A DNA stretch of 64,000 nucleotides, from positions 18,607-82,606 of the forward strand of contig CAYISA010000001.1 in the NCBI GenBank assembly GCA_964365955.1. The letters are read 5' to 3'. Made by a program: the position numbers and the translations under genes. Position 1 is the first letter of the stretch. Each line of letters begins with the position of its first letter. The stretch is from an uncultured Candidatus Saccharibacteria bacterium. GTDB lineage: Bacteria; Patescibacteriota; Minisyncoccia; UBA6257; GWB1-50-10. Shown here one piece after another: positions 29,757 to 43,959 of the stretch. A model generated the notes under the pieces. That model was given only the letters and a program-made list of their open reading frames with translations, was not told where the DNA came from and ran no database searches.

Positions 29757-32516
29757 ATGAAACGCTTTGTTGTTTTTCTTGCTGGTTTGTTTTTCCTTAC
29801 ATCCCTTGTCGCAACCGGCCAATCGTTTGTTCCGACGCAAGGACCGTACGGAAAAGATGTGTTTTCGATTGCTCGCGGAACTGGCGGCCGCATATTTGCA
29901 GGAGCGGAAGATAATCTGTACCGTTTCCGCGATACCGCATGGGCCAATGTTCTTGTTTACAATGACCTCCCGGTTATCTCCAACACCAAACCGATGGCAA
30001 GTTTGAACGGAGAAGTTATTGTTTATGCAAGTTCTCGGTTCATGTCGTATCGAACTTTATATGTGTCAAAAGATGGCGGTGCCACATGGAATACAGAATT
30101 CGCGAGCGGATTCCCGGACGGTCCCCCCCCTTTGACGTGCCTTGCGTTTAACATAGAAGGGCAACTATTTACAGGGACACTAAGACGAGCATTTGCCGAT
30201 ACTGCCGTTGGTGGCGGCATCTGGCGATCACTTGATACTGCGAAGACATGGGAACGAGTCCGTGATACTACAAGCGGTCTAGGGCTTGATACTATTTCCG
30301 TCTATTCACTTACGGTTCGTGGAAACACGATCTTTGTGGGTGCGCAAAGCGGGATCTTTCTCTCAACCGATGCCGGCGCTACCTGGACGCATCATTTTTC
30401 TGATGTGTTTCCGGGGCATATTTATTCCGTTGCGATTGATAGTTCCGGGGACCTCTTCTTGAGCACGGATTATAATTACGGCAACGGAGAAGATATCTAC
30501 CGTTCCACCGACAACGGGACAACCTGGACGGGAATGGGACTAGGCGCTCACACGACCGTGCTTGCCGTGCATCCAAATGGCACTGTTTTTGGCGGTTCGC
30601 GTGAAAACCTCGGCGTTCTTCGATCCACAAACAATGGCATCACATGGGACGCCTCAAATCCGGCTATCGGGAACACCGCCGCAGGTGTACCAAAAATTGC
30701 ATCCATCGAATTCGGCGAGGACGGCAGTGTCTATGTAGGCGCTTTGCTCGATGGAGTATTCCGCTCAACGGATAATGGAACGACATGGAAACAGATAGGA
30801 ATTCCGGCGCAAACCTCTATGGTGGCGATTCCGGACACAGTTGCTCCGCCTCCTCTGATAAGCAAGCTTTTTACGGAATCGGTCTATCTTGATTCCGTTC
30901 CAAGCGCACTTCTTGCAGTCGCAAAAGGGTATCCCTATCAATCTGTCGATGGTGTTCGCTGGGAACGGTTTGAACTTCCTGGTTTCTCTGGATTTGTACA
31001 AACCGCAATCGTTTCACCAGGAAATTCATTTATGGCAACTCTTGGTGGAGGCATTTTCCGGTCACTGGATGGCGGATACACATGGGAACGATTAATATCT
31101 TTCCCAGCGCCAACTCAAAGAATTTATGCCATGGCAATGAGTCATGGGAATAAATTATTTGCAAGCGGTGATTTTGCTGAAGGATTGTATCGTTCTAGTG
31201 ATTTTGGAAATACGTGGGAACAGGTTTATCCATTAGTTGGATTAATTACTTCACTTGCTACGTCCCCACTCAATGATTCTTTAATCTTCGCTGGGGCGGA
31301 TGGAGTTCATCGAAGTACCGATGGTGGAACTTCGTGGGAACTGACTGGCCTTTCGGGCATCGGAATCACATCGCTCTCGGTTGACGCGGGTGGCATGGTC
31401 TACGCCGGAAATCAGGATGGCATCTATCGCTCAACCAACAACGGTACTACCTGGGAACCCCCAAGTGCGGAGTCGAGAGCACTGCGCGGAGTTCAAGGTG
31501 TAGGACCGACGAACGTGCTCTCGATTGCAAGCAAACACGTAAGTGTCTTTGCGGGAACCGAAACGTCGGGACTATATCTTTCCACGGATCAGGGAACTGG
31601 ATGGGAACCGATTAATGCGGGGCTCACCAGTTCCAAAATCCCTTCCGTTACGATCACGCGACGCGGTTATGTTTTTGCCGCAACTGACAAAGGCGTTTTC
31701 CGTTCTCTGTCACCGATTGCGGTAGCAGAGTACACATACGCGCTAACGGACGGATGGAATATGGTTTCACTTCCCGTGCGTCCAGACGATTCCCGGAAGA
31801 CATCGGTCTTCCCGTCGGCACAGTCCAAAGCGTTTGCCTATGACGGCGGTTATAACACCGAAGACGTTATGCAACGTGGCTCCGGCTATTGGGTAAAACA
31901 TCCAAGCGCAGGCATTGCTATATTAGGCACTCCGGTGGAACGTGAAACGGTGAGCGTAAGACAGGGCTGGAACATGATCGGCTCAATTACATCGCCTGTT
32001 CCCGTTGCAACCATCGGAAGCATCCCCGGTGGACTCGTCGTCTCGAATTTCTATGGGTGGAAGGGTGTCTCTCAAGTCTACGACACAGCAGACACCATCG
32101 GCCCCGGAAAAGCGTACTGGGTTAGAGCGTCGGCAAACGGCAAGTTGATACTTGCAAAAACGCCAGCAGCACAACCCTTCGCAATCGTGATTGTGCCCAC
32201 AGACGAAGCTCCGCCGCCACCTCCGGGATATAACGGAAAAGATATTCCAAAGAGCTTCATGCTTTATGGAAACTATCCAAATCCTTGGAACCCAACAACG
32301 GTGATCAAATTTGATCTCCCAGAAAATGCATCCGTGACTTTAAAAGTCTGGAATGTGTTGGGACAGGAAGTTCTGAAGGTGATGGACCATGTTCCGTATG
32401 AAGCGGGTCGCTATGAAATCACACTTCATTCCGACGAGCTGCCGAGTGGCATCTATTTCTACACGCTTCAGGCGGGAAATCATCTTGCAACCAAAAAGAT
32501 GATCCTTCTGAAGTAA
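29757..32516 (+). CDS. BNR/Asp-box repeat beta-propeller protein with T9SS-type C-terminal sorting domain
   Basis: Signal peptide MKRFVVFLAGLFFLTSLVATG. At least 10 S-x-D-x-G-x-T-W boxes (SKDGGATW, STDAGATW, STDNGTTW, STDGGTSW, STNNGTTW, STDQGTGW and others). C-terminus NYPNPWNPTTVIKFDLP..VTLKVWNVLGQEV..SGIYFYTLQAG..KKMILLK. Confidence 0.85.
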   Translation: MKRFVVFLAGLFFLTSLVATGQSFVPTQGPYGKDVFSIARGTGGRIFAGAEDNLYRFRDTAWANVLVYNDLPVISNTKPMASLNGEVIVYASSRFMSYRTLYVSKDGGATWNTEFASGFPDGPPPLTCLAFNIEGQLFTGTLRRAFADTAVGGGIWRSLDTAKTWERVRDTTSGLGLDTISVYSLTVRGNTIFVGAQSGIFLSTDAGATWTHHFSDVFPGHIYSVAIDSSGDLFLSTDYNYGNGEDIYRSTDNGTTWTGMGLGAHTTVLAVHPNGTVFGGSRENLGVLRSTNNGITWDASNPAIGNTAAGVPKIASIEFGEDGSVYVGALLDGVFRSTDNGTTWKQIGIPAQTSMVAIPDTVAPPPLISKLFTESVYLDSVPSALLAVAKGYPYQSVDGVRWERFELPGFSGFVQTAIVSPGNSFMATLGGGIFRSLDGGYTWERLISFPAPTQRIYAMAMSHGNKLFASGDFAEGLYRSSDFGNTWEQVYPLVGLITSLATSPLNDSLIFAGADGVHRSTDGGTSWELTGLSGIGITSLSVDAGGMVYAGNQDGIYRSTNNGTTWEPPSAESRALRGVQGVGPTNVLSIASKHVSVFAGTETSGLYLSTDQGTGWEPINAGLTSSKIPSVTITRRGYVFAATDKGVFRSLSPIAVAEYTYALTDGWNMVSLPVRPDDSRKTSVFPSAQSKAFAYDGGYNTEDVMQRGSGYWVKHPSAGIAILGTPVERETVSVRQGWNMIGSITSPVPVATIGSIPGGLVVSNFYGWKGVSQVYDTADTIGPGKAYWVRASANGKLILAKTPAAQPFAIVIVPTDEAPPPPPGYNGKDIPKSFMLYGNYPNPWNPTTVIKFDLPENASVTLKVWNVLGQEVLKVMDHVPYEAGRYEITLHSDELPSGIYFYTLQAGNHLATKKMILLK

Positions 32517-32528
32517 GTGTTCGGATTC

Positions 32529-32562
32529 AAAACCCCCGCGCTTTTTGCGGGGGTTTTTATTT
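32529..32562. terminator. Bidirectional rho-independent terminator
   Basis: AAAACCCCCGC / GCGGGGGTTTT stem with flanking A and T runs. It closes both the + strand gene and the minus-strand tRNA cluster. Confidence 0.6.
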
Positions 32563-32563
32563 T

Positions 32564-32591
32564 TGGTGGACCCATGGAGAATCGAGCTCCA
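32564..32591 (-). other. Orphan tRNA 3' half (T-arm, acceptor 3' strand, ACCA) resembling the 3' end of the upstream tRNA-Ala
   Basis: The minus strand reads TGGAG-CTCGATT-CTCCA-TGGGTCC-A-CCA. tRNA-Ala ends GCGAG-TTCGATT-CTCGC-TAGGTCC-A. No matching 5' half was found. Confidence 0.5.
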
Positions 32592-32622
32592 GCCTCGGCA
32601 ACTTGCCCGCCCACCATTCTTG

Positions 32623-32693
32623 TGGACCTAGCGAGAATCGAACTCGCGTCTCCACAATGCGAATGTGGCGTCTTGCCACTGGACCATAGGCCC
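32623..32693 (-). tRNA. tRNA-Ala (anticodon CGC)
   Basis: Manual cloverleaf: acceptor GGGCCTA/TAGGTCC with G3:U70, anticodon loop TTCGCAT, T-arm GCGAG-TTCGATT-CTCGC, discriminator A. No encoded CCA. Confidence 0.8.
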
Positions 32694-32781
32694 GATAAAC
32701 AAGCTTATGGTGGGCGGGTAAAAATGCCGCGTAATACCACTTTACTATGGGCCCCAAAATCAATTTTCAAAATGTCTGAAT

Positions 32782-32901
32782 TGGTCGGGCTGCTGGGAAT
32801 CTTTCTCCCCCGTCACTATCGCTCCTCTTCCGAAACCCGCCACACCCGCTTTCTTCGTGCCCCGCACGCGCGGCCGTCGGCTTCGATTTCCATCTCCCAA
32901 A
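32782..32901 (-). ncRNA. tRNA-linked conserved structured element, copy E3 (unassigned family)
   Basis: Collinear conserved blocks shared with 42300-42411 and 43964-44071: TGG(G)AAWTYGAAG, a GC hairpin, GGTTTCGRAG(A)GGAG and GACGGGGGAGAAA. Ends in GATTCCCAGCAGCCCGACCA, a 1-mismatch copy of the tRNA-Pro 3' strand plus CCA. Confidence 0.5.
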
Positions 32902-32955
32902 CAAAAGTATACCTTCTAATGGAATTTATTTGCAAACAACAAGCGCTTAAACCGG

Positions 32956-33026
32956 TCGGGCTGCCGGGAATCGAACCCGGTCTACACGCACCCGAAGCGT
33001 GCGTACTACCGGCATACTCCAGCCCG
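32956..33026 (-). tRNA. tRNA-Pro (anticodon CGG)
   Basis: Acceptor CGGGCTG/CAGCCCG, D-stem GTAT/GTAC, anticodon stem CACGC/GCGTG with loop TTCGGGT (G37), T-arm CCGGG-TTCGATT-CCCGG. Position 8 is G. No encoded CCA. Confidence 0.75.
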
Positions 33027-33072
33027 AAACGTTCTTCACTATACCCGAAGTCATTCTACTCGTAAAGAGAAT

Positions 33073-34563
33073 TTACTGCACGTGGTGCTTTGCCTTCATT
33101 TTTTCTTCAATACCGGTTTCAAATTCTTCTTTCGTCCCGCGCGCTTTTTTTGATAAGTCGTGAAGCCTGCTTTCGGTCATCTCCCCCAGTTCCTTCGATC
33201 GCGTACTCAAATATGCCTCCGCATTCCGTTCGGGATCTTCCAAAACCTCTTCGAGTAAAATCGAGAGGATCTGACCGATTTTCGGTCCCGCGGGAATTTT
33301 CAAAAGTTCCATCAATCCATCCCCCTTCAGTCTTAACATCTTCGGATGAATCGGATCGCGACGCACCTTATCGATCATGAACTGCAGGTGGCGCAGTTTA
33401 TATGGAAATGCCTTAGGAACACCCGAACCGATCCGGTCCGCTTCGCGCACCTTCAGCAAATCATCCACATTTTCCATTCCCACGCGGCTTAAAAATCGTC
33501 GCACGCCGGTTTCCGTAACTTCACCCACGTTGTAATAAAAAAGATGACAGCGTACCAAATGTGCAACGCGTTCAATAATGTCCTTCGAAAATCGTAGACG
33601 ATCTAGAATTTTCAGAGTCATTTTTGCCCCCACAACTTCATGATTATAAAATGTGGAATCATGGCCATCCCCTGCCTTTGTGCGCGGTTTTCCCACGTCA
33701 TGTAAAAGCGAAGCGAGACGCACTTCCAGCGAATACCCCTTTTCAACCGCGTAATTCAGCGCCCGCACATTGTGATCAAAAACGGTAAAGATGTGATGTT
33801 TGTTTTGCCCGCACCCAATTCCTTCGCGAAGTTCGGGAATGATGAATTTCAGAAGCCCTGTATCTTCTAGCATCACAATTCCGTCCGCCGCGCGATCCGT
33901 CATCAATAGTTTTGTTAATTCATCGCGGATACGTTCTTGCGAAATAAGTCCCAGCGCGCCGGAACGCTCCCGGATCGCTTTATAAGTTTCCGGCTCAACC
34001 ACAAACCCCAGATCTGACGAAAATCGCACTGCCCGCAAAAGACGCAGAGCGTCTTCCTCAAAGCGCCGGTGCGGTTCACCCACCGCGCGGATAATTTTAT
34101 TTCCGATATCCGCGACCCCTCCATACGGATCGATGAGTGCAGAGGCGTCTTTTTGAAACGAGAGCGCCAGCGCGTTCACGGTAAAATCGCGGCGCGCCAG
34201 ATCGTCTTCTACGGTTGCGGCAAATTTTACTTCGTCGGGGTGTCGCTTGTCCGAATAGGTTCCTTCAATCCGATACGTCGTGACTTCTACTACTTTCAGT
34301 CGCGGATCCTCGGATTCGGTTTTTACACCCACCGTTCCGAAGATATTTTCATAGACGCTCTCCGGAAAGAGTTTTTGAATCTCATCGGGCTTTGCGTTCG
34401 TCGTGATATCCCAGTCCTTCGGTTCCCGTTTCAGAATAAGATCACGAACACACCCGCCAACCAAAAACGCCTCAAACCCCGCCTGGATAAGCGTCTCGGC
34501 AACATGAACAACCCCTTTGGGAATGGATCCATACGTCATAGGTTGTTTTAATTGTAATTTCAT
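33073..34563 (-). CDS. cca: CCA-adding tRNA nucleotidyltransferase (PolyA-pol family with HD domain)
   Basis: N-terminus LVGGCVRDLIL..KDWDITT, a head domain, and an HD motif LLHDVGK. Confidence 0.85.
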   Translation of the reverse strand: MKLQLKQPMTYGSIPKGVVHVAETLIQAGFEAFLVGGCVRDLILKREPKDWDITTNAKPDEIQKLFPESVYENIFGTVGVKTESEDPRLKVVEVTTYRIEGTYSDKRHPDEVKFAATVEDDLARRDFTVNALALSFQKDASALIDPYGGVADIGNKIIRAVGEPHRRFEEDALRLLRAVRFSSDLGFVVEPETYKAIRERSGALGLISQERIRDELTKLLMTDRAADGIVMLEDTGLLKFIIPELREGIGCGQNKHHIFTVFDHNVRALNYAVEKGYSLEVRLASLLHDVGKPRTKAGDGHDSTFYNHEVVGAKMTLKILDRLRFSKDIIERVAHLVRCHLFYYNVGEVTETGVRRFLSRVGMENVDDLLKVREADRIGSGVPKAFPYKLRHLQFMIDKVRRDPIHPKMLRLKGDGLMELLKIPAGPKIGQILSILLEEVLEDPERNAEAYLSTRSKELGEMTESRLHDLSKKARGTKEEFETGIEEKMKAKHHVQ

Positions 34564-34633
34564 TTGACACGATTTTCAACGCGATGTAGACTTTTTCTAG
34601 TACTTTAATCAACTAGAAAAGGGGTATTTTACT

Positions 34634-35017
34634 ATGGCATTTCCCTCTAAAGAGACGGGCGCGTTGCTCACGAAAATCATCGAGTTCCAAGAAACGACCC
34701 TGCCCCAAAGCGAAAAACTTGCGGAAGACCTGGGGTCTTTGCTCCAAGAAATTTTGAAAAGCGCTGATGAATCTAACAAACAGATGGAAAATCTGGAAAA
34801 AGTAAACGGGGACTTAGAGAAAAAAGTCCAAGAATTACAAAATACATTGGTGGATCCGAAAGAGATCCAGAACGAAGCGATTCAGATCATTCTGCGGCGC
34901 ATTCTCGATAGCGAACCTGACGCAACACTGCGCCCGAAACTTGAGCGACTGATTGAAATCACACTGCACGAACGTATCTACCTCACTCCCGACCAGATCG
35001 CGCTCAAGATTTCTTAA
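34634..35017 (+). CDS. Hypothetical coiled-coil protein
   Basis: 127-aa ORF rich in E/K/L heptads, followed by a terminator. Confidence 0.45.
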   Translation: MAFPSKETGALLTKIIEFQETTLPQSEKLAEDLGSLLQEILKSADESNKQMENLEKVNGDLEKKVQELQNTLVDPKEIQNEAIQIILRRILDSEPDATLRPKLERLIEITLHERIYLTPDQIALKIS

Positions 35018-35025
35018 GCTCATAT

Positions 35026-35056
35026 GCCGTCTTTATAAAAGGCGGCTTTTTATTTT
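35026..35056 (+). terminator. Rho-independent terminator
   Basis: GCCGTC / GGCGGC stem followed by TTTTTATTTT. Confidence 0.5.
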
Positions 35057-35083
35057 GAAATGTCTGCGGTACACTAAAATTAT

Positions 35084-35158
35084 GCCCCTGTGGTGAAAAG
35101 GATATCACGACTGGCTTCGAACCAGTTGTTGGGGGTTCGAATCCCTCCGGGGGCACCA
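35084..35158 (+). tRNA. tRNA-Arg (anticodon TCG), CCA encoded
   Basis: Acceptor GCCCCTG/CGGGGGC, D-arm GTGA-AAAGGATA-TCAC, anticodon arm ACTGG-CTTCGAA-CCAGT, T-arm GGGGG-TTCGAAT-CCCTC, then ACCA. Confidence 0.8.
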
Positions 35159-35165
35159 CGACATT

Positions 35166-35489
35166 ATGCAGTGGATTTTACCTCTTTTAATTCTTATCAT
35201 CTTTGAAGCCATCGCGGATGTACTGGCGAAAGAATGGTCGCTACACGGTCTTTGGATCCGCGCAACGGGCGCCCTTCTTGCTTATCTTTTAGCAAACACT
35301 TTCTGGCTCTTTGCGCTCAAGAACGGATCCGGGCTCGGACGAGGCGTGATCATTTTTTCCGTAGTTTCTGCGATTCTTGCGGTCTTCATCGGTTTCGTAT
35401 TTTATAAGGAAAATCTTACCACGCTTCAGATTGTCGGCGTTCTCGTCGGCATCATCTCTATTGTGCTTATTTTTTGGGACTCATCGTAG
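35166..35489 (+). CDS. Small four-helix membrane transporter (SMR/EamA-like)
   Basis: 107 aa with four TM helices and a membrane-embedded Glu in helix 1 (LILIIFEAIADVLAK). Confidence 0.5.
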   Translation: MQWILPLLILIIFEAIADVLAKEWSLHGLWIRATGALLAYLLANTFWLFALKNGSGLGRGVIIFSVVSAILAVFIGFVFYKENLTTLQIVGVLVGIISIVLIFWDSS

Positions 35490-35538
35490 GTTCTTCCCAA
35501 AAATTCGGAAGTGCGGTATATATGTATAGATCAACGTA

Positions 35539-35611
35539 CCGCCTGTAGCTCAATTGGCAGAGCAGCTCCCTCTTAAGGAGACGGTTGAAGGTTCAAGTCC
35601 TTCCAGGCGGA
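35539..35611 (+). tRNA. tRNA-Lys (anticodon CTT)
   Basis: Acceptor CCGCCTG/CAGGCGG, TAGCTCAATTGGCAGAGC D-arm, anticodon loop CTCTTAA, T-arm GAAGG-TTCAAGT-CCTTC. No encoded CCA. Confidence 0.8.
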
Positions 35612-35640
35612 CAAAAAAATAGCGCCGTGACGGGCGCTAT
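35612..35640 (-). terminator. Rho-independent terminator for the minus-strand small ORF
   Basis: ATAGCGCC / GGCGCTAT stem followed on the minus strand by T7. Confidence 0.5.
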
Positions 35641-35825
35641 AAGCGTAGATTCGGAAAGAAATGAAGCTACCCACCAAACTAAGATTTTTTTGACTTCAAC
35701 AGTTTCTGTTCCATCTTTTGAAGCTCGGCAAGCTGACGTTTTTTCTTGGGCGTAAGAATCACTCCTTTGATGGGGCTGATAAGAATCCCGTCAAAAAATT
35801 CAGTCAGTTTTTGAAGCACTTCGCC

Positions 35826-36041
35826 CTAGAAATCGAGTCTTTTTTTCTGCGATTGAATTCTTTTTTCGATTTTTGATGCCTTTAATTTATTTCCCCGAAC
35901 TCCCACGATATGACATGACTTCCCGCACTTAGCACAAGAAAAGTTAAAAGTGCAGATCTCTTTGCTACCAGGAAAATCAGGTATGCCATGCGTTTTTACC
36001 TTAGCATGACAACATTTCGATCTGTAATTCTGCTCGAACAT
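35826..36041 (-). CDS. Small C4 zinc-ribbon protein (71 aa), followed by an in-frame TAG and 48 further sense codons
   Basis: CC..C..C pattern (SKCCHAK...FSCAKCGKSCH). After TAG 35828-35826 the frame stays open (GEVLQKLTEFFDGIL..KKKRQLAELQKMEQKLLKSKKS) to TAG 35681-35679, just before the terminator. Confidence 0.4.
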   Translation of the reverse strand: MFEQNYRSKCCHAKVKTHGIPDFPGSKEICTFNFSCAKCGKSCHIVGVRGNKLKASKIEKRIQSQKKRLDF

Positions 36042-36146
36042 TTCATCTTCTCCATTTTTTTGAAAAGGCTAACTCCAGTATCACTCTTTTGCGGGTCATG
36101 TCAAACGGTCGAAAAATACCGAAAAATCTGGTATACTGGTGCGCGC

Positions 36147-38336
36147 ATGAAGGGAAATCACGAACTCTTGACGCCTCTTTCGGAAATCCATGGAATCGGC
36201 GCGCGGTTTCTTGAGAAACTCGCACGCTTGCATATCTATACCGTGAAAGATCTTCTGTGGCACTTCCCCACCCGCTACGAAGATTTCAGAACAATTTATA
36301 AAATTGCGGATCTTATTCCAAATCAGGAGGCAACCATTCAAGGAGTTGTGGAAAAGATAAAAAGCCGGCATACCTGGCGCCGGAATCTATTCCTAATGGA
36401 AGCGGACATTTCGGATGATACTGGCACCATCCGCGCCCTATGGTTTAACCAACCCTATATCCAAAATGTTCTTCAGCCGGGAAAACAGGCTAATTTTTCC
36501 GGGAAAGTGGTTCTTTCGCGAAAAGAGAGTGATCTGTATCTTTCAAACCCAACCTATGAAGTGTTGCGCTCCGGACATTCCTCTTTCGACGAAACAGGAG
36601 CACCCATTGAGACACCCACGGAAACACGTCACACCGCGCGCATTGTGCCAATCTACCCCGAAACACGCGGGTTCACTTCCAAAGGACTACGGTACCTTAT
36701 CAAACCGATTTTAGATAATCTTCCTGAGATTCCCGAAACCATTCCGGAAGAAGTACTTAAAGGAGAAAACTTTCCAACTGTCTCGAACGCTCTCCAAAAT
36801 GTCCATTTCCCCGAAACTCTCGAGGATGCGATTGCCGCAAAACGCCGCTTTGCGTTTGAAGATCTTTTTCTTTTGCAGCTGTGGAGTGTCCGCGAGCGGC
36901 TAAAATTCGCTAAAGAACGTGCGCCGCAAATTCATGTCGATATTGCCGTTATTAAAAACTATATCGCCGCGCTTCCGTTTGCACTGACCAAGTCCCAAAA
37001 AAAAACGTTGTGGGAAATTATGCAGGATTTAGGGCGCCCCCACCCCATGAACCGGCTTCTCCAGGGCGATGTGGGATCCGGAAAAACCATCGTAGCGGCG
37101 ATCGCGGCGCTTGAAACTGCCCACACGGAGTACCAGACGGCGTTTATGGCGCCTACCGAACTCTTGGCTCGCCAGCACTATAAAACGTTTCAGAAATTTT
37201 TCCGCGATTTTGACGGCGGCATCGCACTCCTGACCTCCAGCGAAGCTAAGATGCAGTACGGTCATCAACTGGAGAGCGAGATGCGGAAAGCGGCGCTACT
37301 TGACCATATCGAACAGAATAAAATTAAAATTGTGATTGGAACTCACGCGTTGATTCAAAAAACAGTCACATTTCCGAAACTTGGGTTGGTAGTGGTAGAC
37401 GAACAGCACCGCTTCGGAGTCCGCCAACGGGATGTGCTTTTAAAGCATAACCTCGGGAACAAAAAAGAACATCCTCCCATCCCGCATTTTCTTAGTATGA
37501 GCGCGACGCCGATCCCCCGAACACTCAACCTTACGCTTTTCGGCGATCTGGATCTTTCGCTGATTACGGAACTTCCAAAAGACCGGAAGCCGATTCTTAC
37601 CAAAGTGGTTCCTCCCAAAGACCGAACCAAAGCATATGCGTTTATCCGCAGTGAGATCAAAAAGAGCCGGCAGGTATTCGTCATCTGTCCCAGAATTGAA
37701 GTAGCCGCAGAGAATCCGTCCGCTTTCGGGAACGTAAATCCATTGCAAGAAATAAGAGCCGTGAAAGAAGAGTATAAGAAATTATCAGAAAAGATATTCC
37801 CCGATCTCCGCGTCGCCATGCTCCACGGTAGAATGAGACCGAAAGAAAAAGAGAAAACAATGCGGGAATTTTCCGAAGGGAAAAAAGATATCTTGGTTGC
37901 GACGTCAGTCATTGAAGTCGGCATCGATATTCCAAATGCCACCATCATGATAATCGAGGGCTCCGAACGATTCGGCCTAGCACAACTGTATCAGTTCCGC
38001 GGGCGCGTGGGACGGGGAGAACATCAGTCCTACTGCCTGCTTTTTACCGATGCATCGGGCACCCAAATAAAAGCGCGCCTCAAGGCGATCGTGGAGGCAA
38101 AAAACGGATTCGAGCTTGCGGAATATGACCTGAAAATGCGCGGACCCGGCGAGTTTTTGGGAGAGTCGCAAACCGGGATGCCGGACTTGGCAATGAAAGC
38201 CATACAGAATCCCGATCTGGTACAACATGCCCGCGAAGCCGCTACCAAACTTCTTGCAAAAGACCCGAACTTGAAAATATATCCGCTGCTTGCCGAACGC
38301 CTTGCAGAGTTTCAAAAAAATATGCACGGGGAATGA
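36147..38336 (+). CDS. recG: ATP-dependent DNA helicase RecG
   Basis: Wedge domain, then helicase motifs: GDVGSGKT, DEQHRFG, SATPIPRT and the TRG motif QLYQFRGRVGRG. Start moved to ATG 36147 (MKGNHELLTPL), preceded by TATACT. Confidence 0.9.
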   Translation: MKGNHELLTPLSEIHGIGARFLEKLARLHIYTVKDLLWHFPTRYEDFRTIYKIADLIPNQEATIQGVVEKIKSRHTWRRNLFLMEADISDDTGTIRALWFNQPYIQNVLQPGKQANFSGKVVLSRKESDLYLSNPTYEVLRSGHSSFDETGAPIETPTETRHTARIVPIYPETRGFTSKGLRYLIKPILDNLPEIPETIPEEVLKGENFPTVSNALQNVHFPETLEDAIAAKRRFAFEDLFLLQLWSVRERLKFAKERAPQIHVDIAVIKNYIAALPFALTKSQKKTLWEIMQDLGRPHPMNRLLQGDVGSGKTIVAAIAALETAHTEYQTAFMAPTELLARQHYKTFQKFFRDFDGGIALLTSSEAKMQYGHQLESEMRKAALLDHIEQNKIKIVIGTHALIQKTVTFPKLGLVVVDEQHRFGVRQRDVLLKHNLGNKKEHPPIPHFLSMSATPIPRTLNLTLFGDLDLSLITELPKDRKPILTKVVPPKDRTKAYAFIRSEIKKSRQVFVICPRIEVAAENPSAFGNVNPLQEIRAVKEEYKKLSEKIFPDLRVAMLHGRMRPKEKEKTMREFSEGKKDILVATSVIEVGIDIPNATIMIIEGSERFGLAQLYQFRGRVGRGEHQSYCLLFTDASGTQIKARLKAIVEAKNGFELAEYDLKMRGPGEFLGESQTGMPDLAMKAIQNPDLVQHAREAATKLLAKDPNLKIYPLLAERLAEFQKNMHGE

Positions 38337-38408
38337 AGCGGTTTGCGTGCGAAAAACATATTGATATATAATCCGATTAGCACATTCCAAGAACTATAAG
38401 GAGTTTTT

Positions 38409-39089
38409 GTGAAATATCTTGTTTGGATGTCGATATTTTTTGTATTTTCCCCTTCGGTTGCTTCTGCACAGTCACCTACAATCATCGCAAAAAGCTTCTA
38501 CGCAATCGAGATTAATTATTCCGATCCCGTCTCATGGTTCGGGGGATCGGTTCTGGGATTTGCACCTAAACAAGCGCTCTATCATGAAACATGGAAACCG
38601 GGTAAAGCGCCGGGTTATGCCTTTCGAGTGGAGTTGATTGCGGACGGAAAAGAACGATGGTTCCTGGTAGATCAGGATTCCTCCGTTCAATCTTTTGTCC
38701 ACCTGCCACGCGCCGACCTGAAAAATCTTGGAAAAGACGCGATATTGCTGGTGGGGCAAATCCTTCACTTTCTGAACTGTACAGACGCCTGCTCTACAAC
38801 ACTTCAGGGGATCCTCCATATCGATACATCGGAAATTGTTTCAAAATTCCGCGATCGTAAACCATTCGAAATTCCCGATTCCGAAAAAATTCAACTCCGC
38901 GGGACGCACTCACGATTTGTGACTGTAACCACGCGAAACGTAAACACTAGAGATCCCTATATCGCGGGAGATATCTTGATTGAGCGCGTGAATGGTTACA
39001 CTATCTACCCATATGTTTCGGTTTATCTTTTTGACCAAAAAATATGGATAACACTCTACCTAAGAAAATTTTTGGTAGAATATCAGTAA
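38409..39089 (+). CDS. Hypothetical secreted protein
   Basis: GTG start and signal peptide MKYLVWMSIFFVFSPSVASA. No family recognised. Confidence 0.5.
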   Translation: MKYLVWMSIFFVFSPSVASAQSPTIIAKSFYAIEINYSDPVSWFGGSVLGFAPKQALYHETWKPGKAPGYAFRVELIADGKERWFLVDQDSSVQSFVHLPRADLKNLGKDAILLVGQILHFLNCTDACSTTLQGILHIDTSEIVSKFRDRKPFEIPDSEKIQLRGTHSRFVTVTTRNVNTRDPYIAGDILIERVNGYTIYPYVSVYLFDQKIWITLYLRKFLVEYQ

Positions 39090-39120
39090 AACCCCCCGAA
39101 TAATCCGAGGGGTTTTTATT
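39088..39120. terminator. Bidirectional terminator hairpin
   Basis: AAAACCCCCCG...CGAGGGGTTTTT between convergent genes. Confidence 0.5.
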
Positions 39121-39131
39121 TCTTTTTCGAT

Positions 39132-41138
39132 TTATCGGAACTCTACCTTGAACTCCGTTTTTAATAGTTTCTTTATTTTTTCTATTTGTTTATCCACTTC
39201 TTCTGCAGTCAACGTCCGATTGTCTTGTTGGAACACGATTCGGAACGTAAGACTTTCTTTATCCGTCCATTTGGGATCGCTGTACTCATCCACAAGATCC
39301 ACGTCGCGGATCATGCGCATATTGGCAAGCTGGATCGCCTGCATCACGTCTCCTACCGAATACATAGTGTTTAGAAGGATAGAAATATCGCGCATCACCG
39401 CCGGATAACGGGAAGGCGGCAGATACTCCATTTCCTCGGCTACCGCTTCTTTCAATACATCGAGTTGGATTTCCACGATCGCCGTATGCCAGCCTTTCGC
39501 CGTTGTCAAAGCAGTCCCCATAACACCGATTTCTTTTGCACCCAAACGAAGTGTGACAACAGAAGATTTGTCCATCCAGTATTTTCCGACATGGGCCGGC
39601 TTTCCTTTCTTGTCGAAAAGAACGGAGTCGGTAATGCCCGTACTTTTCAAAAAACTTTGAAGAACGCCTTTTAAGTTGAAAAATGATTCCTTGCCTTTGG
39701 TTGCAAACACCATGCCCAGCATCCATTGCTCCACAATACCTTTTGTATTTCGCAAAAAGGTCTTCCCAACCTCGAAAATAGTCACCGTATCCCCAAACTT
39801 TGCATTCGATTCGGCACTTGCAAGCAGATTTGGCGCGAGTGCAGGGCGAAGATAATAAAATTCTTTACTGATCGGATTTTCCAAAGACACTAAAATCGCT
39901 TTTTCCACCATTATCTCGGCCTCTTTCGCAATAAAGGAATTGCCGTATATCTCGTTCAAACCCAATTCCGAAAGAATTTTTCGCGTTTTTTCTTTAAGAA
40001 CAATAGTTTCATCTTGTGCTGCCGCGCCCAAATGAATACGGGGCGGAACGGATTTTAAATTCCCCAATCCGTAAAGCCGCACCACTTCTTCTGCTATGTC
40101 TTCGTGGGTTTCAATGTCAGTTCGATAAAGTGGAACTTTCCACACATCCTTCCCTTTGTTTATAAATCCAAGACGCCGTAGATATCCTGCCGCCACCTCA
40201 TTAGAAAGAGAGGTCCCGATAAATGCGTTGAATTTAAGAATATCGAACCTAAGCTCGTGCTTGGGGGCCGGTTTCTTTTGCGAATCATATACTTCAAGAA
40301 TCTTTGCGCCTGTGATTTCTTGGATCACGTAAGCGGCACGCGAAAGTCCTAATTCTGCAAGGTTTTCGCTTAACCGATGTGAAAACCTCTGTGACGCATC
40401 AGTTACCAACTTCAACATTTTTGACGTTCTATAAATACTCACGGGATCAAATGTGGCGGACTCAATAACAATGCGCTTTGTGGCTGCAGTCACCTCCGGG
40501 CCATGTCCCCCTTTGATTCCAGCAATTGCGATCGAATGCTTGGCATCCGCAATCACCACCGTCTCGGGCGCAAGATCATATTTCACCCCATCAATCGTAA
40601 TTATGGATTCTCCCTTCTTCTTCGCGCGCCGCACAATAATTTTTGCGCCCTCTAATTTATCCGCATCAAACGCATGAAGCGGCTGGCCCATCTCGAGCAT
40701 TACATAATTCATTGCATCAACGATGTTATTAATGGGACGAAGCCCGCACTCTTTGAGTGTTTCCTGCATCCACCGCGGAGATGATTTTACAGTGACCTCA
40801 TCCATCACACACGCGGTGTATCGAGTACAAAGTTGTGGCTCATCTATATTTATGTTCAATTGTGGTTTACAATTTCTAGAGGGTTTTGCAAAATCCACAA
40901 CCGGCAATTTCTTCATTCCGCCCCAGTCGACAATCCAGTCAAAAATCACCGCGACTTCTTTGGCAATGCCCCAATGTGATGAGGCATCGGCATATCGATT
41001 CGGGGGAAGATTCACCTCGAATGTGTTCCCGGAAGCATCTTCCGCTTCAAACGCGTGTAAGGACAGCGCCTCGACGACCTGCGCTTTGGATTTCAGCTTG
41101 GGAACGAATTGTTTCACAAGGGAGTACGAAAATTTCAT
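39132..41138 (-). CDS. pheT: Phenylalanyl-tRNA synthetase beta subunit (short form, 668 aa)
   Basis: B3/4, B5 and FDX-ACB-like regions are recognisable. Lies immediately downstream of pheS. Confidence 0.88.
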   Translation of the reverse strand: MKFSYSLVKQFVPKLKSKAQVVEALSLHAFEAEDASGNTFEVNLPPNRYADASSHWGIAKEVAVIFDWIVDWGGMKKLPVVDFAKPSRNCKPQLNINIDEPQLCTRYTACVMDEVTVKSSPRWMQETLKECGLRPINNIVDAMNYVMLEMGQPLHAFDADKLEGAKIIVRRAKKKGESIITIDGVKYDLAPETVVIADAKHSIAIAGIKGGHGPEVTAATKRIVIESATFDPVSIYRTSKMLKLVTDASQRFSHRLSENLAELGLSRAAYVIQEITGAKILEVYDSQKKPAPKHELRFDILKFNAFIGTSLSNEVAAGYLRRLGFINKGKDVWKVPLYRTDIETHEDIAEEVVRLYGLGNLKSVPPRIHLGAAAQDETIVLKEKTRKILSELGLNEIYGNSFIAKEAEIMVEKAILVSLENPISKEFYYLRPALAPNLLASAESNAKFGDTVTIFEVGKTFLRNTKGIVEQWMLGMVFATKGKESFFNLKGVLQSFLKSTGITDSVLFDKKGKPAHVGKYWMDKSSVVTLRLGAKEIGVMGTALTTAKGWHTAIVEIQLDVLKEAVAEEMEYLPPSRYPAVMRDISILLNTMYSVGDVMQAIQLANMRMIRDVDLVDEYSDPKWTDKESLTFRIVFQQDNRTLTAEEVDKQIEKIKKLLKTEFKVEFR

Positions 41139-41141
41139 AAA

Positions 41142-42140
41142 TCAGAATTGTTCGATAAACCTTATGTCACCCGAATAAAACAGCCGAATGTCGGGGATGT
41201 TATATTTGATCATCGCGAGTCGATCGAGCCCCATACCGAACGCGAACCCTTGCACTCCACCGGCTGACGAATCGGGGTTATAACGCACCGCATCAAAAAC
41301 ATTTCGATGTACCATCCCCGCGCCCATGACTTCCAGCCATTTTCCACCTTTCAACCGAATATCAACTTCCAATCCCGGCTCGACGAAGGGAAAATAACTT
41401 GGTCGGAAACGAAAATCGATTTGAGTACGGAAAAACTTTTTGAAAAATTCCTCGATAATGAATTTAAAATTGGCGAGCGTCACATCCGGTCCCACCATCA
41501 GCCCTTCGACCTGATAAAAATTGAACGCGTGGGAAGCATCGGTTGCTTCATAACGGAATACCCGTCCCGGAACAATAATCTGAAACGGGGGGTTGTGCGC
41601 CTGCATATAACGAATCTGCATGGGCGACGTGTGCGTGCGTAACAACAAACTTTCCTCGCCGCGTTTTTCCTTTTTTATCCAGAACGTATCCCACAGGTCC
41701 CGCGCGGGATGATCGCCCGGAATATTCAGCGCATCAAAATTATAGAATTCCGATTCGATTTCCGGTCCTTCCACAACGGAAAAGTTCATCGAGGAAAAAA
41801 TGCGACGCACTTCGGCGTCCACCAGCGTAAGAGGATGGAGATGCCCCCGGGAAATTCGCTTCCCCGGTTTTGTGACGTCGATTCTTTTTTTACTTTTTAT
41901 CTCCGAAAGATGCGTAAGCGCAACAGCGATTTTCTTTTCCAGTTCTTGACGCAGGGCATTTGCGCGCGGACCCAATTTCCGCCGCCCTTCCACCGGAAGG
42001 CCCTTGAGAGATTTGAGTATTTCCGTAAGTTCTCCTTTGCGGCCGATGTATTTTATGCGCGCAAGTTCGAGCGCCACCGCGTCCCGTGCTTTTTCTATAT
42101 CGCCCCAGGCACGTTTTTTAATATCCTCAAGCGGTTCCAT
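41142..42140 (-). CDS. pheS: Phenylalanyl-tRNA synthetase alpha subunit
   Basis: Class II motifs: HPARDLWDTFW, FRPSYFPFVEPG and GFAFGMGLDRLAM. Confidence 0.92.
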   Translation of the reverse strand: MEPLEDIKKRAWGDIEKARDAVALELARIKYIGRKGELTEILKSLKGLPVEGRRKLGPRANALRQELEKKIAVALTHLSEIKSKKRIDVTKPGKRISRGHLHPLTLVDAEVRRIFSSMNFSVVEGPEIESEFYNFDALNIPGDHPARDLWDTFWIKKEKRGEESLLLRTHTSPMQIRYMQAHNPPFQIIVPGRVFRYEATDASHAFNFYQVEGLMVGPDVTLANFKFIIEEFFKKFFRTQIDFRFRPSYFPFVEPGLEVDIRLKGGKWLEVMGAGMVHRNVFDAVRYNPDSSAGGVQGFAFGMGLDRLAMIKYNIPDIRLFYSGDIRFIEQF

Positions 42141-42188
42141 GGTTTATATATCTATTATATCCGAATTTTCTCCGAGAGAAAAACGGAT

Positions 42189-42216
42189 TTGAATTTCAAG
42201 GTATTCTTAGTATATG
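42189..42216 (+). promoter_or_regulatory. Possible promoter for the tRNA pair (TTGAAT-16 nt-TATATG)
   Basis: The -10 element ends 8 nt before the first tRNA nucleotide. Confidence 0.3.
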
Positions 42217-42223
42217 ATGGTTC

Positions 42224-42295
42224 TGCGGGGAAGAGTAACGGTTGCTCGTCAGGCTCATAACCTGAAGGTAGTGGGTTCAATTCCCACCCCCGCAA
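42224..42295 (+). tRNA. tRNA-Met (anticodon CAT), initiator-like
   Basis: Closely parallels E. coli tRNA-fMet as I recall it (xGCGGGG...GCTCGTCxGGCTCATAACCxGAAGGT...CCCCCGCAA). A11:U24 is present. It has U1:A72 and A8, and only two G:C pairs at 29-31/39-41. Confidence 0.7.
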
Positions 42296-42299
42296 CACA

Positions 42300-42411
42300 G
42301 GTGGGAATTGAAGTCGACCCGAGCGCTTGCGGGGCAAGAAAAAGTGAGGGCGACGGGTTTCGAAGGAGTCCCGCCGAAGCGGACGGGGGAGAAAAATTCC
42401 CACCCCCGCGA
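42300..42411 (+). ncRNA. tRNA-linked conserved structured element, copy E1 (unassigned family)
   Basis: The 5' arm GGTGGGAATT pairs with the 3' arm AATTCCCACC (10 bp). The core carries the conserved blocks shared with E2 and E3. It ends in CCCAC-CCCCGCG-A, a 1-mismatch copy of the upstream tRNA 3' strand. A 34-nt repeat at 42279-42312 and 42395-42428 flanks the core. Confidence 0.5.
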
Positions 42412-42433
42412 CACAGGTGGGAATTGAAATATT

Positions 42434-42506
42434 GCCGGCGTAGCTCAGTGGTTAGAGCGAGCGCTTCATAAGCGTTAGGTCGGAGGTTCGATCCCTCCCG
42501 TCGGCA
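42434..42506 (+). tRNA. tRNA with anticodon CAT (elongator Met or Ile2; not distinguishable by eye)
   Basis: Acceptor GCCGGCG/CGTCGGC, TAGCTCAGTGGTTAGAGC, anticodon loop TTCATAA, T-arm GGAGG-TTCGATC-CCTCC. No CCA. Confidence 0.8.
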
Positions 42507-42510
42507 CTAA

Positions 42511-42540
42511 AAGCCCCGCCAATTGGCGGGGTTTGGGTTT
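42511..42540. terminator. Rho-independent terminator
   Basis: GCCCCGCC-AATT-GGCGGGGT followed by a T-rich tail. Confidence 0.55.
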
Positions 42541-42740
42541 CACATATAGATAACATCACCGCAGGAAATAACGCGTCCTTTTTTTGATCCCGATACAACA
42601 CGCCAAATCGGACACCGTGACGGGCAGTTATCGCGTCCAATCATTTCTACTTCATACTTACCTTCATTTCGGACAAAAATCTTTATGGCCTCTCCTATGA
42701 CAAATTTGGAAGTGTCCACCCTACATTGCCTCTGTCCCAT
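42540..42740 (-). CDS. Hypothetical small protein (66 aa)
   Basis: ORF only. No recognisable family. Ends at the shared terminator. Confidence 0.3.
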   Translation of the reverse strand: MGQRQCRVDTSKFVIGEAIKIFVRNEGKYEVEMIGRDNCPSRCPIWRVVSGSKKGRVISCGDVIYM

Positions 42741-42838
42741 GAATCTCTCCTTTCTTAATAATGAATTGATGCTGTAGCTAAGTATCCTCTATTCGTGTTT
42801 TTCGGTCAAGAACCTGTCGCGTTTACCGCGCTTTTGAT

Positions 42839-43297
42839 ATGCTTATTCCCATGACTACGGAACAAAAGAAAAAAATCGTATCCGTTGCTCGCGCGCTTGT
42901 CGGTAAGTCATACGTGTACGGCGCCGCGCCGGAAAATGTTCCAAACGCATTCGATTGCTCATCGTTTACGCAATATGTTTTCGGGCAGATAGGAATCCAA
43001 CTTCCACGCAGTGCTATCCTGCAAGCCGCCGACCCTAACGGAAAAGAAGTCGAAATTTTTCCGGACTTCCAGAATCTTGAAATCGGCGATCTACTTTTCA
43101 TGCGTAGCGACCGCGGACATTACCACGACCAGTTATTCAACGGAAAAACAATGGATATCGGACATGTCGTTCTTTATCTGGGGGGCGGAGCAATCATCCA
43201 TTCACAAAGCAAAAAAGGTGGGGTCGTCGAAGAACCCTTGAAAGAGTTCGCGCTGCAGCCGCACTATTCGGTTGTTTATATCAAGCGTTTTGAATGA
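42839..43297 (+). CDS. NlpC/P60 (C40) family cysteine peptidase, no signal peptide
   Basis: Catalytic Cys context AFDCSSFTQYVF and His context GHVVLYLGGGAIIHS. Confidence 0.85.
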   Translation: MLIPMTTEQKKKIVSVARALVGKSYVYGAAPENVPNAFDCSSFTQYVFGQIGIQLPRSAILQAADPNGKEVEIFPDFQNLEIGDLLFMRSDRGHYHDQLFNGKTMDIGHVVLYLGGGAIIHSQSKKGGVVEEPLKEFALQPHYSVVYIKRFE

Positions 43298-43815
43298 CCT
43301 ACTCGATTCCCGCTTACTCCCAACACCTGGATATTAAAGACAAAAAGTGGCGCCGCCGCTCCTGCGGAGTTGTCGCTTTCAAAATGGTACTGGATTTCTG
43401 GGAAAAACAAACATCCCCAACATTCCCAGAACTCTTGAAAAACGGACAGAAGATGAAAGCATACATTCGGGGCGTCGGGTGGAGCCATGCTGGTATTGCC
43501 AAACTTGCAAAAAAATACGGTTTTGCAGGAAAAAATTTTGATTGGTTCCTGAAAAAATCCGAATGGGCGTTCAAAAAAACCCGAATTTTTCTAAAAACCG
43601 GCCCCGTGATTGTATCGATCCATAAAGATCTGAATCCAAAGAAATCGGGGCATCTGGTGGTGGTTACTCGTATCACCGCGAGCCGCGTTTACTACCTGGA
43701 TCCCGACGCTTACGCGCGCGACAACATACGGCGCGTGGCTTCAAAAAAACGTTTTCTCGCGGGATGGAAGCGGCGCATGATCATTGTCCGCCCCCGCGGG
43801 TTGCATAGAAAATAA
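43294..43815 (+). CDS. Peptidase C39-like (papain-fold) protein, no signal peptide
   Basis: RSCGVVAFKMVLDFW (Cys) and GHLVVVTRI..YYLDP (His/Asp). ATGA overlap with the upstream gene. Confidence 0.65.
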   Translation: MTYSIPAYSQHLDIKDKKWRRRSCGVVAFKMVLDFWEKQTSPTFPELLKNGQKMKAYIRGVGWSHAGIAKLAKKYGFAGKNFDWFLKKSEWAFKKTRIFLKTGPVIVSIHKDLNPKKSGHLVVVTRITASRVYYLDPDAYARDNIRRVASKKRFLAGWKRRMIIVRPRGLHRK

Positions 43816-43841
43816 GGAATTGTTAAAGTGTAGTTGCTGTT

Positions 43842-43917
43842 GCGGGCGTGGTGTAGCCTGGTTTAACACGCCTCCCTGTCACGGAGGAGACCGTGGGTTC
43901 AAATCCCATCGCCCGCG
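43842..43917 (+). tRNA. tRNA-Asp (anticodon GTC)
   Basis: Acceptor GCGGGCG/CGCCCGC, discriminator G, anticodon arm CCTCC-CTGTCAC-GGAGG, T-arm GTGGG-TTCAAAT-CCCAT. No CCA. Confidence 0.85.
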
Positions 43918-43930
43918 CACGTGAAAAGAA
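43911..43930 (+). repeat. Direct repeat, left copy (tRNA-Asp acceptor 3' end plus trailer): GCCCGCGCACGTGAAAAGAA
   Basis: 19 of 20 nt identical to 47967-47986. Confidence 0.85.
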
Positions 43931-43959
43931 GTTACCCCTTGTGGGTAATTTCTTTTTAT
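43924..43959 (+). terminator. Terminator-like hairpin after tRNA-Asp
   Basis: 14-bp stem (AAAAGAAGTTACCC / GGGTAATTTCTTTT) with a 5-nt loop and a T-rich 3' side. Confidence 0.5.

Follow-up and report, generated by a model that had tools for sequence, protein, structure and literature searches.

A complete tRNA-Ala gene inside a disrupted tRNA-Ala gene: a probable mobile cassette in Patescibacteria

Why is a complete tRNA-Ala gene framed by a perfect inverted repeat and followed by what looks like the 3′ end of another tRNA? The locus that raises this question lies in a 64-kb stretch of DNA from an uncultured Candidatus Saccharibacteria bacterium (contig CAYISA010000001.1; hereafter the window, numbered from its first nucleotide), where a complete inner tRNA-Ala(CGC) is enclosed by a disrupted outer tRNA-Ala-like gene spanning 32754-32564 on the minus strand. 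We consider it probable, at roughly 0.7, that at this locus a mobile cassette of ~117 bp, carrying a replacement tRNA-Ala(CGC), has taken the place of the anticodon loop in a resident tRNA-Ala(CGC) gene. The nested structure can be read directly from the window and recurs in relatives. No description of tRNA-in-tRNA nesting or of split tRNAs in Patescibacteria was found in the searchable literature, and the arrangement of one tRNA within another, which recurs in many related ultra-small bacteria of the candidate phyla radiation (CPR), appears to be undescribed so far.

The inner and outer tRNA-Ala genes of the window

The original prediction had treated the 3′ piece as an orphan. Its sequence stands as reported, with direct reading giving TGGAG-CTCGATT-CTCCA-TGGGTCC-A-CCA at 32591-32564 on the minus strand, a T-loop that begins with C rather than T, and an encoded CCA that is lacking in the tRNA-Ala(CGC) called by ARAGORN at 32693-32622. 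However, the piece is not an orphan, as a matching 5′ half that had been overlooked lies 130 nt upstream at 32754-32725. When the inner tRNA is masked, the ARAGORN intron model joins the two halves into a single 74-nt tRNA (32754..32564) with a 117-nt insert in the anticodon loop, so that the 3′ piece belongs to a complete tRNA under this model. On the native sequence the same intron option leaves the outer tRNA unreported, because the higher-scoring inner gene masks it. The outer 5′ half (32725..32754, minus strand, from direct reading and the masked ARAGORN call) consists of the acceptor strand GGGCCCA (32754-32748) followed by TA, the D-arm GTAA/AGTGGTA/TTAC (32745-32731) followed by G26, and the anticodon-stem 5′ strand CGGCA (32729-32725). 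The outer 3′ half (32564..32600, minus strand, from sequence, RNAfold and the masked ARAGORN call) runs in the order TGCCG, variable region AGGC, T-arm TGGAG/CTCGATT/CTCCA (with U54C), TGGGTCC, A73 and encoded CCA. All outer helices are perfectly paired (7/7, 4/4, 5/5 and 5/5), including G3:U70 in the acceptor stem and CGGCA/TGCCG in the anticodon stem. The 3′ acceptor strand can also pair with the 5′ strand of the inner tRNA through a U6:G67 wobble, as had been proposed, but its actual 5′ partner is GGGCCCA, which it pairs with through G3:U70, rather than the suggested GGACCCA, and a role as an alternative partner for the inner tRNA did not hold up. The outer 5′ half matches the plain tRNA-Ala(CGC) genes of four related loci (L013, L014, L027 and L098) at 30/30 nt, and putting the loop TTCGCAT back into the outer gene yields an ARAGORN call of tRNA-Ala(cgc).

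The inner gene (32693-32622, minus strand) is a canonical tRNA-Ala(CGC) with G3:U70, A73 and the T-loop TTCGATT (ARAGORN; Rfam RF00005, 62.7 bits, E = 7e-12). It is preceded by a 13-nt A/T-rich linker, aagcttgtttatc (32694..32706, minus strand), which forms its 5′ leader, and followed by a 5-nt trailer linker, caaga (32618..32622, minus strand); short linkers of an equivalent kind occur in the cassettes of relatives. Outside the linkers lie the arms of the inverted repeat, CCCGCCCACCAT on the left (32707..32718, minus strand), forming the 5′ strand of the RNA stem, and ATGGTGGGCGGG on the right (32606..32617, minus strand; on the forward strand, CCCGCCCACCAT reads at 32606-32617 and ATGGTGGGCGGG at 32707-32718). 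The repeat, which the original prediction had recognised, is perfect over 12/12 bp and extends to 15 nt at 93%. The 12-mer itself is unique in the window, and allowing up to one mismatch gives 4 matches against 0.34 expected, a number reached in 0/100 shuffles. Between the left arm and the outer gene, TTTTTA (32719..32724, minus strand) comprises loop bases U32 and U33 together with the outermost bases of the left end of the cassette, and on the right CAAGT (32601..32605, minus strand) comprises the right terminal motif of the cassette (G-CAAG) and loop base U38. The minimum free energy (MFE) fold predicted by RNAfold for 32560-32760 on the minus strand is the nested structure (-85.4 kcal/mol, z = -4.77), with 0/200 shuffles equally stable, and the inverted repeat probably forms a stem in the transcript.

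The present outer loop, TTTTTA...CAAGT, would give UUU, CAA or UAA under any splice, on a body with alanine identity (G3:U70, A73); TTTTTA, in which the left end TTTA-C corresponds to TTCA-C in relatives, gives UUU when read as an anticodon. Given that it has no CGC anticodon and carries U54C, the outer gene looks like a disrupted tRNA-Ala(CGC) whose function is supplied by the canonical inner tRNA. The inner gene is therefore presumed, from its sequence, to be the working gene, and would be the sole working copy, while the outer halves are best read as vestigial. An alternative is that the outer gene is a real intron-containing tRNA whose insert is removed either by the ribozyme of a group I intron or by an endonuclease of the archaeal bulge-helix-bulge (BHB) type acting with a ligase, which would yield two mature tRNAs from a single gene. 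ARAGORN places the insert at the canonical 37/38 position, and group I introns are frequent in the tRNA genes of Patescibacteria, in many cases at 35/36 (PMC13011429); 35/36 is also the commonest insertion point in the relatives described below. However, the introns of this kind in bacterial tRNAs measure 184-894 bp, and none was at 37/38 in the Patescibacteria survey (PMC13011429), whereas the insert here has 117 nt, 72 of which are tRNA. Rfam gave no group I match across 31000-45000 at E <= 1 or across 13 loci at the gathering threshold, finding only tRNAs. Similarly, the MFE and centroid folds place a 6x5-nt internal loop beside the 12-bp stem instead of two 3-nt bulges 4 bp apart, and by inspection a forced BHB register breaks the helix after 2 bp. 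Splicing would put a UUU anticodon on an alanine-identity tRNA, and the junction positions are element termini common to Ala, Met and Arg hosts. The intron reading is thus largely refuted, and we regard it as extremely unlikely. Transfer-messenger RNA (tmRNA) was also rejected as an identity for the locus: neither ARAGORN nor Rfam finds one in the window, the outer gene has a full D-arm, and Met, Pro and Thr outer genes lack G3:U70.

Nested tRNA genes in related genomes

Relatives were collected with the protein of the neighbouring CCA-adding enzyme gene (cca) as a probe, giving 80 genome loci and 80 metagenome loci (L numbers), all from Patescibacteria/Parcubacteria. The gene order cca - tRNA-Pro(CGG) - tRNA-Ala(CGC) is widely conserved in Parcubacteria. 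Nested tRNAs were sought by inspection of flanks, by masking each of 469 tRNAs and rescanning, and by repeat scans, and the nested architecture was found at least 20 times among the 160 syntenic loci, for tRNAs of the kinds Ala, Pro, Arg, Thr and Met. Ala is nested in Ala in the window and in L152, L102, L048/L116, L105, L016 (5′ half only), L017, L018, L022, L025, L039, L066, L143 and L070; Pro in Pro in L088, L097, L068, L031, L116, L108 and L126; Arg in Arg in L008/L085 (in the D-loop, with the cassette inverted); Thr in Thr in L070; and Met in Met in L121. In every nested case the inner and outer tRNA are of one kind, and in every nested case the inner tRNA lies within an inverted repeat of 11-15 bp. 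The repeat around the tRNA is therefore a feature kept in relatives, as the original prediction had left to be checked. Across 15 cassettes (at least 10 different sequences), 191/193 stem positions are paired, with compensatory changes, whereas the flanking repeats of ~55 plain tRNA-Ala genes reach only 5-9 nt, which is chance level. A tRNA-Ser(TGA) in L070 (10820-10929) stands directly in a 12-bp repeat (CCCGCCCAAAGC/GCTTTGGGCGGG) with no recognisable outer halves and is the sole apparently free-standing loaded cassette encountered.

The usual insertion point is directly past TTCG (35/36), and otherwise 37/38. TTCG is present in the anticodon loop of all nested tRNA kinds except Met (Ala CGC, Pro CGG, Thr CGT and Arg TCG), and an insert past TTCG coincides with the position reported to be enriched for group I introns in Patescibacteria. 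The sequences at the two junctions are shared across hosts: the left end TTYA-C is common to Ala, Met and Arg hosts, independent of the native anticodon, and the right motif G-CAAG occurs in L152, L102, L048/L116, L121 (Met host), L088 (Pro host) and L008 (Arg host, cassette inverted). These conserved flanks are the outermost bases of the terminal inverted repeat, and as element termini they make the outer ‘anticodon’ look alike in every host. Other readings of the flanks TTTTCA/CAAGT were all dropped, since the flanks are repeat ends that are also found inverted in the Arg host and at non-tRNA sites: an anticodon mutated towards UUC in both Ala and Met hosts, an internal loop conserved in the RNA, a k-turn, a BHB motif, the attC core of an integron, and the ends of IS200/IS605 elements.

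The outer genes are native genes. For example, the outer gene of L017 is the plain tRNA-Ala of its relative L013 broken by three insertions. Several outer tRNA-Ala genes (L017, L018, L022, L025 and L039) also contain, at position 30/31 and upstream of the inner tRNA-Ala, a two-hairpin insert of ~70 nt (‘Y’) with the order CCCGC..GCGGG, CGATTTGTA..TACAAATCG (a covarying variant in L025) and GGAAC, the first 12 nt of which are similar to the window repeat arm. In addition, a 20-nt palindrome, CCTGCCTGCCGGCAGGCAGG, recurs in loops of disrupted outer tRNAs at the unrelated loci L121 (D-loop), L070 (T-loop), L128 and L160.

Evidence that the cassettes move comes from a plain and a nested locus, L029 and L102, which have both flanks 100% identical within a tract of ~1.5 kb at 97-100% identity, in genomes that are otherwise mosaic. 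They differ by the 116-nt insert and by 7 substitutions, all confined to outer positions 12-44, and at these positions L102 agrees with the outer gene of L048; the 7 substitutions are a co-conversion tract. The insert is thus polymorphic for presence and absence among relatives, with co-conversion of its surroundings. L102 and L048/L116 have identical inner tRNAs in flanks that are only ~72% identical. Together, the identical cassettes in divergent genomes and the L029/L102 pair demonstrate horizontal sharing, and the cassettes appear to be installed by homologous recombination with the tRNA halves as arms. The inner tRNA of the window differs from the nested inner tRNA of L143 at two positions. 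The idea that inner tRNAs form lineages restricted to cassettes was rejected, as L088 has an apparently plain gene of the CCACA/TGTGG type. Carriage by phages was sought by scanning viral contigs with a 15-mer from the cassette end, which gave 28 matches, of which only one had a partner arm, and that one consists of two empty hairpins; the scan gives no evidence for phage carriage of loaded cassettes. These two adjoining hairpins (L163, 2400-2600, on the viral-classed contig IMGVR_UViG_3300038429_000794) read TCCCGTTAGAGG-CGAC-GCCTCTAATGGGA and CCCCGTTAGAAG-CGATA-ACTTCTAACGGGG-CAAGT and belong to the repeat family described below.

tRNA genes are classical integration sites, and the locus could instead be an integrase att scar, or have arisen when a local tandem duplication decayed, in either case without a specific mobile cassette. 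The orphan copies of tRNA 3′ ends behind the tRNA-Pro, tRNA-Met and tRNA-Asp genes of the window do resemble attR-type repeats. However, an integrase would leave a complete tRNA and a 3′ fragment, whereas here both halves, of another allele type, enclose a whole tRNA; the insert is only 117 bp long and has terminal motifs conserved across hosts and genomes. Tandem duplication cannot produce the nested order, and the inner and outer alleles match different lineages, so that the inner copy is foreign. We give next to no credence to a scar or duplication. Among the roles that the original prediction had offered (a stem for processing, a 3′ half acting as a decoy, or what is left of an att site), the analysis therefore supports the direction of a mobile-element remnant, with a probable stem in the transcript, and not a classical integrase scar.

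The repeat family, its nuclease genes and the proposed spread of the cassette

Repeats of the form CCCGTTAGA...TCTAACGGG enclose tRNA-Ala, tRNA-Pro or tRNA-Arg, an open reading frame (ORF) for a GIY-YIG nuclease domain, or other filling of 50-130 nt. The arm pair CCCGTTAGAAAT/ATTTCTAACGGG, the commonest of all, also lies outside tRNAs, around 50-130 nt of GC-rich filling and often at the ATGAA of gene starts. Perfect 4-bp direct repeats (TGAA, TTTA, TGGG, TTCA, TAAA, TTGA and TACA) flank 12/16 of the non-tRNA copies in the CCCGTTAGA subfamily, against 1/~150 unrelated repeat pairs. As target-site duplications, they identify the main repeat family as a family of transposable elements. Copies beginning TTCAC-CCCGTTAGAAAT were seen at L014 (2218-2612) and L160 (9032-9314), with ~14 further copies in L011, L012, L016, L018, L023, L040, L050, L066, L079, L103, L105 and L127.

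Two copies of ~280 bp (L014 2335-2612 and L160 9032-9314) have an 84-aa ORF as their sole content, which is a GIY-YIG nuclease domain (Pfam E = 3.5e-15). Such ORFs are associated with the elements: they occur inside related elements in L066, L160 and L014 and beside new tRNA copies in L063, L103, L143 and L047. Of the eight GIY-YIG ORFs in the 161 sources, seven have a tRNA gene no more than 245 nt away. In L066 the ORF is within the outer tRNA-Ala, beside a hairpin-flanked inner tRNA, and L143 has the same architecture with a short hairpin where the ORF was, as an ORF-less derivative. The order of old tRNA-Lys 5′ half, GIY-YIG ORF and new tRNA-Lys is found on the minus strand at L063 2734-2988, L103 1030-1281 and L143 3503-3754; at these loci a hairpin has been inserted into the D-loop or the anticodon arm of the decayed 5′ half, and the new gene, a complete tRNA-Lys(CTT), begins 9-10 nt past the stop codon of the ORF. 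The GIY-YIG copy of L160 (9032-9314, minus strand) sits at approximately position 9/10 of a tRNA-Pro, where the repeat end ...CGGGC and a TGTA duplication rebuild the 5′ acceptor strand, and as a result ARAGORN still calls an intact tRNA-Pro. The ~280-bp elements could represent a very small, undescribed kind of transposon, and literature searches turned up nothing relevant on GIY-YIG elements that combine inverted repeats with target duplications.

In the mechanism that we propose, the cassette consists of a complete tRNA-Ala(CGC) set between short linkers and bounded by the 12-bp terminal inverted repeat, and its insertion would be free of cost to the cell because it brings a working copy of the gene that it destroys; decoding would be taken over by the inner tRNA. 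The outer helices (acceptor, T and anticodon) and the 12-bp stem are predicted to pair among themselves in the precursor RNA, which may keep leader and trailer off the near-identical inner tRNA during RNase P and 3′ processing. These steps would free the inner tRNA, and CCA would be added by the enzyme encoded directly upstream. The window copy would be an ORF-less, non-autonomous member of a family of tiny terminal-inverted-repeat elements in Parcubacteria. Copies loaded with a tRNA appear to pass from one genome to another by homologous recombination, in which the conserved tRNA halves would act as homology arms, and one possible stimulus is a nuclease that cuts empty tRNA genes, as in the intronless homing of T4 SegB.

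Several findings weigh against this reading. The repeat subfamily of the window, CCCGCCCACC, is represented just once elsewhere, by the nested tRNA-Thr of L070, which is bracketed by the window arm family (CCCGCCCACCTTT/AAAGGTGGGCGGG), and it is tied to the well-supported CCCGTTAGA family only by its architecture, its size (116-123 nt) and its terminal motifs; on these features, together with the insertion site, we infer that both belong to one element family. The window copy has no target-site duplication (its flanks are TTTA and CAAG), and no copies with 4-bp duplications at unrelated sites were seen for the CCCGCCCACC subfamily. Even within the CCCGTTAGA subfamily, 0/6 tRNA-loaded copies have a target-site duplication, so these copies were not made by simple transposition. 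The 64-kb window contains no GIY-YIG ORF, and the ORFs of relatives consist of the catalytic domain only, without a DNA-binding domain; no relative was found for them in PDB, and they score below threshold against intron endonucleases (TIGR01453, 18-24 bits against a cut-off of 56). Homing driven by the nuclease is thus put forward as a conjecture. Furthermore, the nearest cca relatives are only 73% (genomes) and 70% (metagenomes) identical, too distant for dating the insertion in the window. Finally, the acceptor and T helices of the outer genes are strikingly intact, with the acceptor stem paired at 7/7 in 12/13 outer genes, and the outer exons of L017 are conserved far above its flanks, which could signal a remaining function of the outer RNA.

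Such a function is the basis of an alternative in which the locus is a functional RNA design, the outer fold and the 12-bp stem serving as a processing scaffold or insulator, or the annealed halves forming a chargeable two-piece tRNA-like molecule. The outer helices are perfect in the window, and in the relatives the acceptor stem persists despite interrupted D and anticodon arms; insertions in outer genes sit in loops and spare the acceptor stem. The stems also covary, for example from G:C to A:U between L105 and L017; the halves resemble the split tRNA halves of Nanoarchaeum, and the repeat-bracketed tRNA-Ser of L070 is apparently not nested. Nevertheless, ~55 plain tRNA-Ala(CGC) genes of relatives do without stem or outer halves, and the L029/L102 polymorphism shows that the arrangement is dispensable. 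The outer genes also decay: L017 has three insertions, the D-loop is interrupted in L048, L066 and L143, L016 has lost the 3′ half, the anticodon stem of L121 is broken and the outer gene of the window has U54C. In addition, the same repeats form ordinary mobile copies with target duplications far from tRNAs. We therefore consider a functional RNA design unlikely. Its two-piece variant draws on the terminal CCA and on G3:U70, which would permit alanine charging for a role outside decoding; that the halves, still annealed through the 12-bp stem once processing has freed the inner tRNA, form a bacterial two-piece tRNA that is charged by alanyl-tRNA synthetase and either used outside decoding, for instance to donate alanine, or ligated is, in our judgement, very unlikely, although such loci would be the first bacterial counterpart of archaeal split tRNAs, and one made by a mobile element. 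With a disrupted resident gene and a mobile cassette as the preferred reading, the intact acceptor and T helices may reflect a recent arrival, repeated resetting by recombination or a residual function of the RNA.

The surroundings of the nested genes suggest a single transcription unit. A promoter-like site, TTGCAA-18-TATACT (32906..32935, minus strand, a match to consensus only), lies upstream of the structured element E(Pro) and the nested unit, and a strong bidirectional intrinsic terminator, AAAACCCCCGC...GCGGGGGTTTT (32529..32557), directly past the outer 3′ half closes the tRNA unit. As these bracket the unit, the outer halves are expected in the precursor of the inner tRNA, and should be co-transcribed with it if the promoter-like site is used. 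No ORF lies between the outer halves, an interval of 117 bp. The cca gene adjoins the tRNA unit at 33073-34563 on the minus strand. Converging on the locus from the other side is a gene for a 919-aa protein (29757-32516, plus strand) whose C-terminus is a type A sorting domain of the type IX secretion system (T9SS), scoring 43.3 bits with TIGR04183 at a cut-off of 23. Such a domain would not be expected in a Parcubacteria-like genome; the even GC content of this region gives no hint of a chimeric join.

Structured ‘X’ elements lie behind other tRNAs of the window: E(Pro) behind tRNA-Pro (32891-32781, minus strand, with an encoded CCA), E(Met) behind tRNA-Met (42300-42412, plus strand) and E(Asp) behind tRNA-Asp (43965-44072, plus strand). 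Each starts with the reverse complement of the T-loop and T-stem 3′ strand of its own tRNA, contains the conserved blocks GGYTTCGRAGGAG and CGGGGGAGAAA, and ends in a copy of its own tRNA from approximately position 57 to the 3′ end. Their consensus fold has three helices, with compensatory changes in 16/33 pairs (four sequences). A second subtype is found behind tRNA-Ala, tRNA-Pro and tRNA-Lys at many loci, and L017 has it in the T-arm of its dead outer gene. A hammerhead or other ribozyme was rejected for these elements, as the order of motifs does not fit and Rfam gave no match. A second inverted copy of the tRNA-Met T-arm, GGTGGGAATTGAA (42416-42428, plus strand), lies between E(Met) and the second tRNA-Met (42434-42507). 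The X elements are a family distinct from the Ala cassette, and the theme that the original prediction saw as shared with its elements E1-E3 is accordingly a partial link: those belong to another, structured family, whereas the Ala locus is a repeat-bounded cassette in an anticodon loop.

If the mobile cassette is confirmed, it would illustrate how a mobile element can enter an essential and highly conserved gene free of cost, by carrying along a working copy of the same gene, and how the conserved halves of the broken tRNA gene can act as universal homology arms for recombination into distant genomes. Standard tRNA finders give the inner gene only, so that outer halves or ‘orphan’ fragments in CPR genomes may be misread as att sites or noise. 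Bacterial tRNA genes whose anticodon loop has been split by mobile DNA would also bear on the origin of split and intron-containing tRNA genes. Should the GIY-YIG nuclease prove to move them, the ~280-bp elements would be a new and exceptionally small kind of transposon.

Comparison with known systems

Phage T4 SegB is a GIY-YIG homing endonuclease encoded in a tRNA cluster, which recognises the DNA of a T-psi-C stem-loop and co-converts neighbouring tRNA genes (PMC2330249). Its intronless homing resembles the elements described here in that a GIY-YIG gene lies among or within tRNA genes, tRNA flanks are co-converted by recombination, and an intact replacement copy travels along. In contrast to SegB (221 aa), the ORFs found here have ~84 aa and only the catalytic domain, and cleavage by them is a prediction; the elements have terminal inverted repeats, their ordinary copies have 4-bp target duplications, they lie inside a tRNA gene with a whole replacement tRNA, and the window copy is ORF-less.

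The elements are also similar to MITEs (miniature transposable elements with inverted repeats) and other small passenger transposons, with perfect terminal inverted repeats of 11-15 bp, lengths of 50-130 bp, numerous copies in each clade, ordinary copies flanked by 4-bp target duplications, and ORF-less beside ORF-bearing members. Unlike MITEs, no DDE transposase was seen, the GIY-YIG nuclease being the only ORF, and the tRNA-loaded copies lack target duplications and occur almost only inside a cognate tRNA gene. The group I introns of tRNA genes in Patescibacteria (PMC13011429) share with the cassette the phylum, an anticodon-loop target that is often 35/36, and the fact that standard annotation misses them, but the cassette has no ribozyme core, is far too short, and rescues its host gene by a second copy rather than by splicing.

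In Nanoarchaeum, complementary extensions rich in GC join the halves of split tRNAs. Archaeal split tRNAs, or those with a BHB intron at 37/38, are like the outer gene in being broken in the anticodon loop, with halves that have a GC-rich complementary extension of 12-14 nt, which would keep them together. The window locus differs in its bacterial host, in the lack of a BHB motif, a known endonuclease and a usable anticodon, and in having its halves in cis around another tRNA, and the evidence favours a dead gene. Similarly, in the intervening sequences (IVS) of bacterial ribosomal RNA (rRNA) genes an extended hairpin replaces the terminal loop of a structured RNA gene, with a sporadic distribution and horizontal transfer, and excision by RNase III without religation is a plausible further parallel. 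The difference from rRNA IVS is that the host here is a tRNA, and the loop of the hairpin holds a complete functional tRNA.

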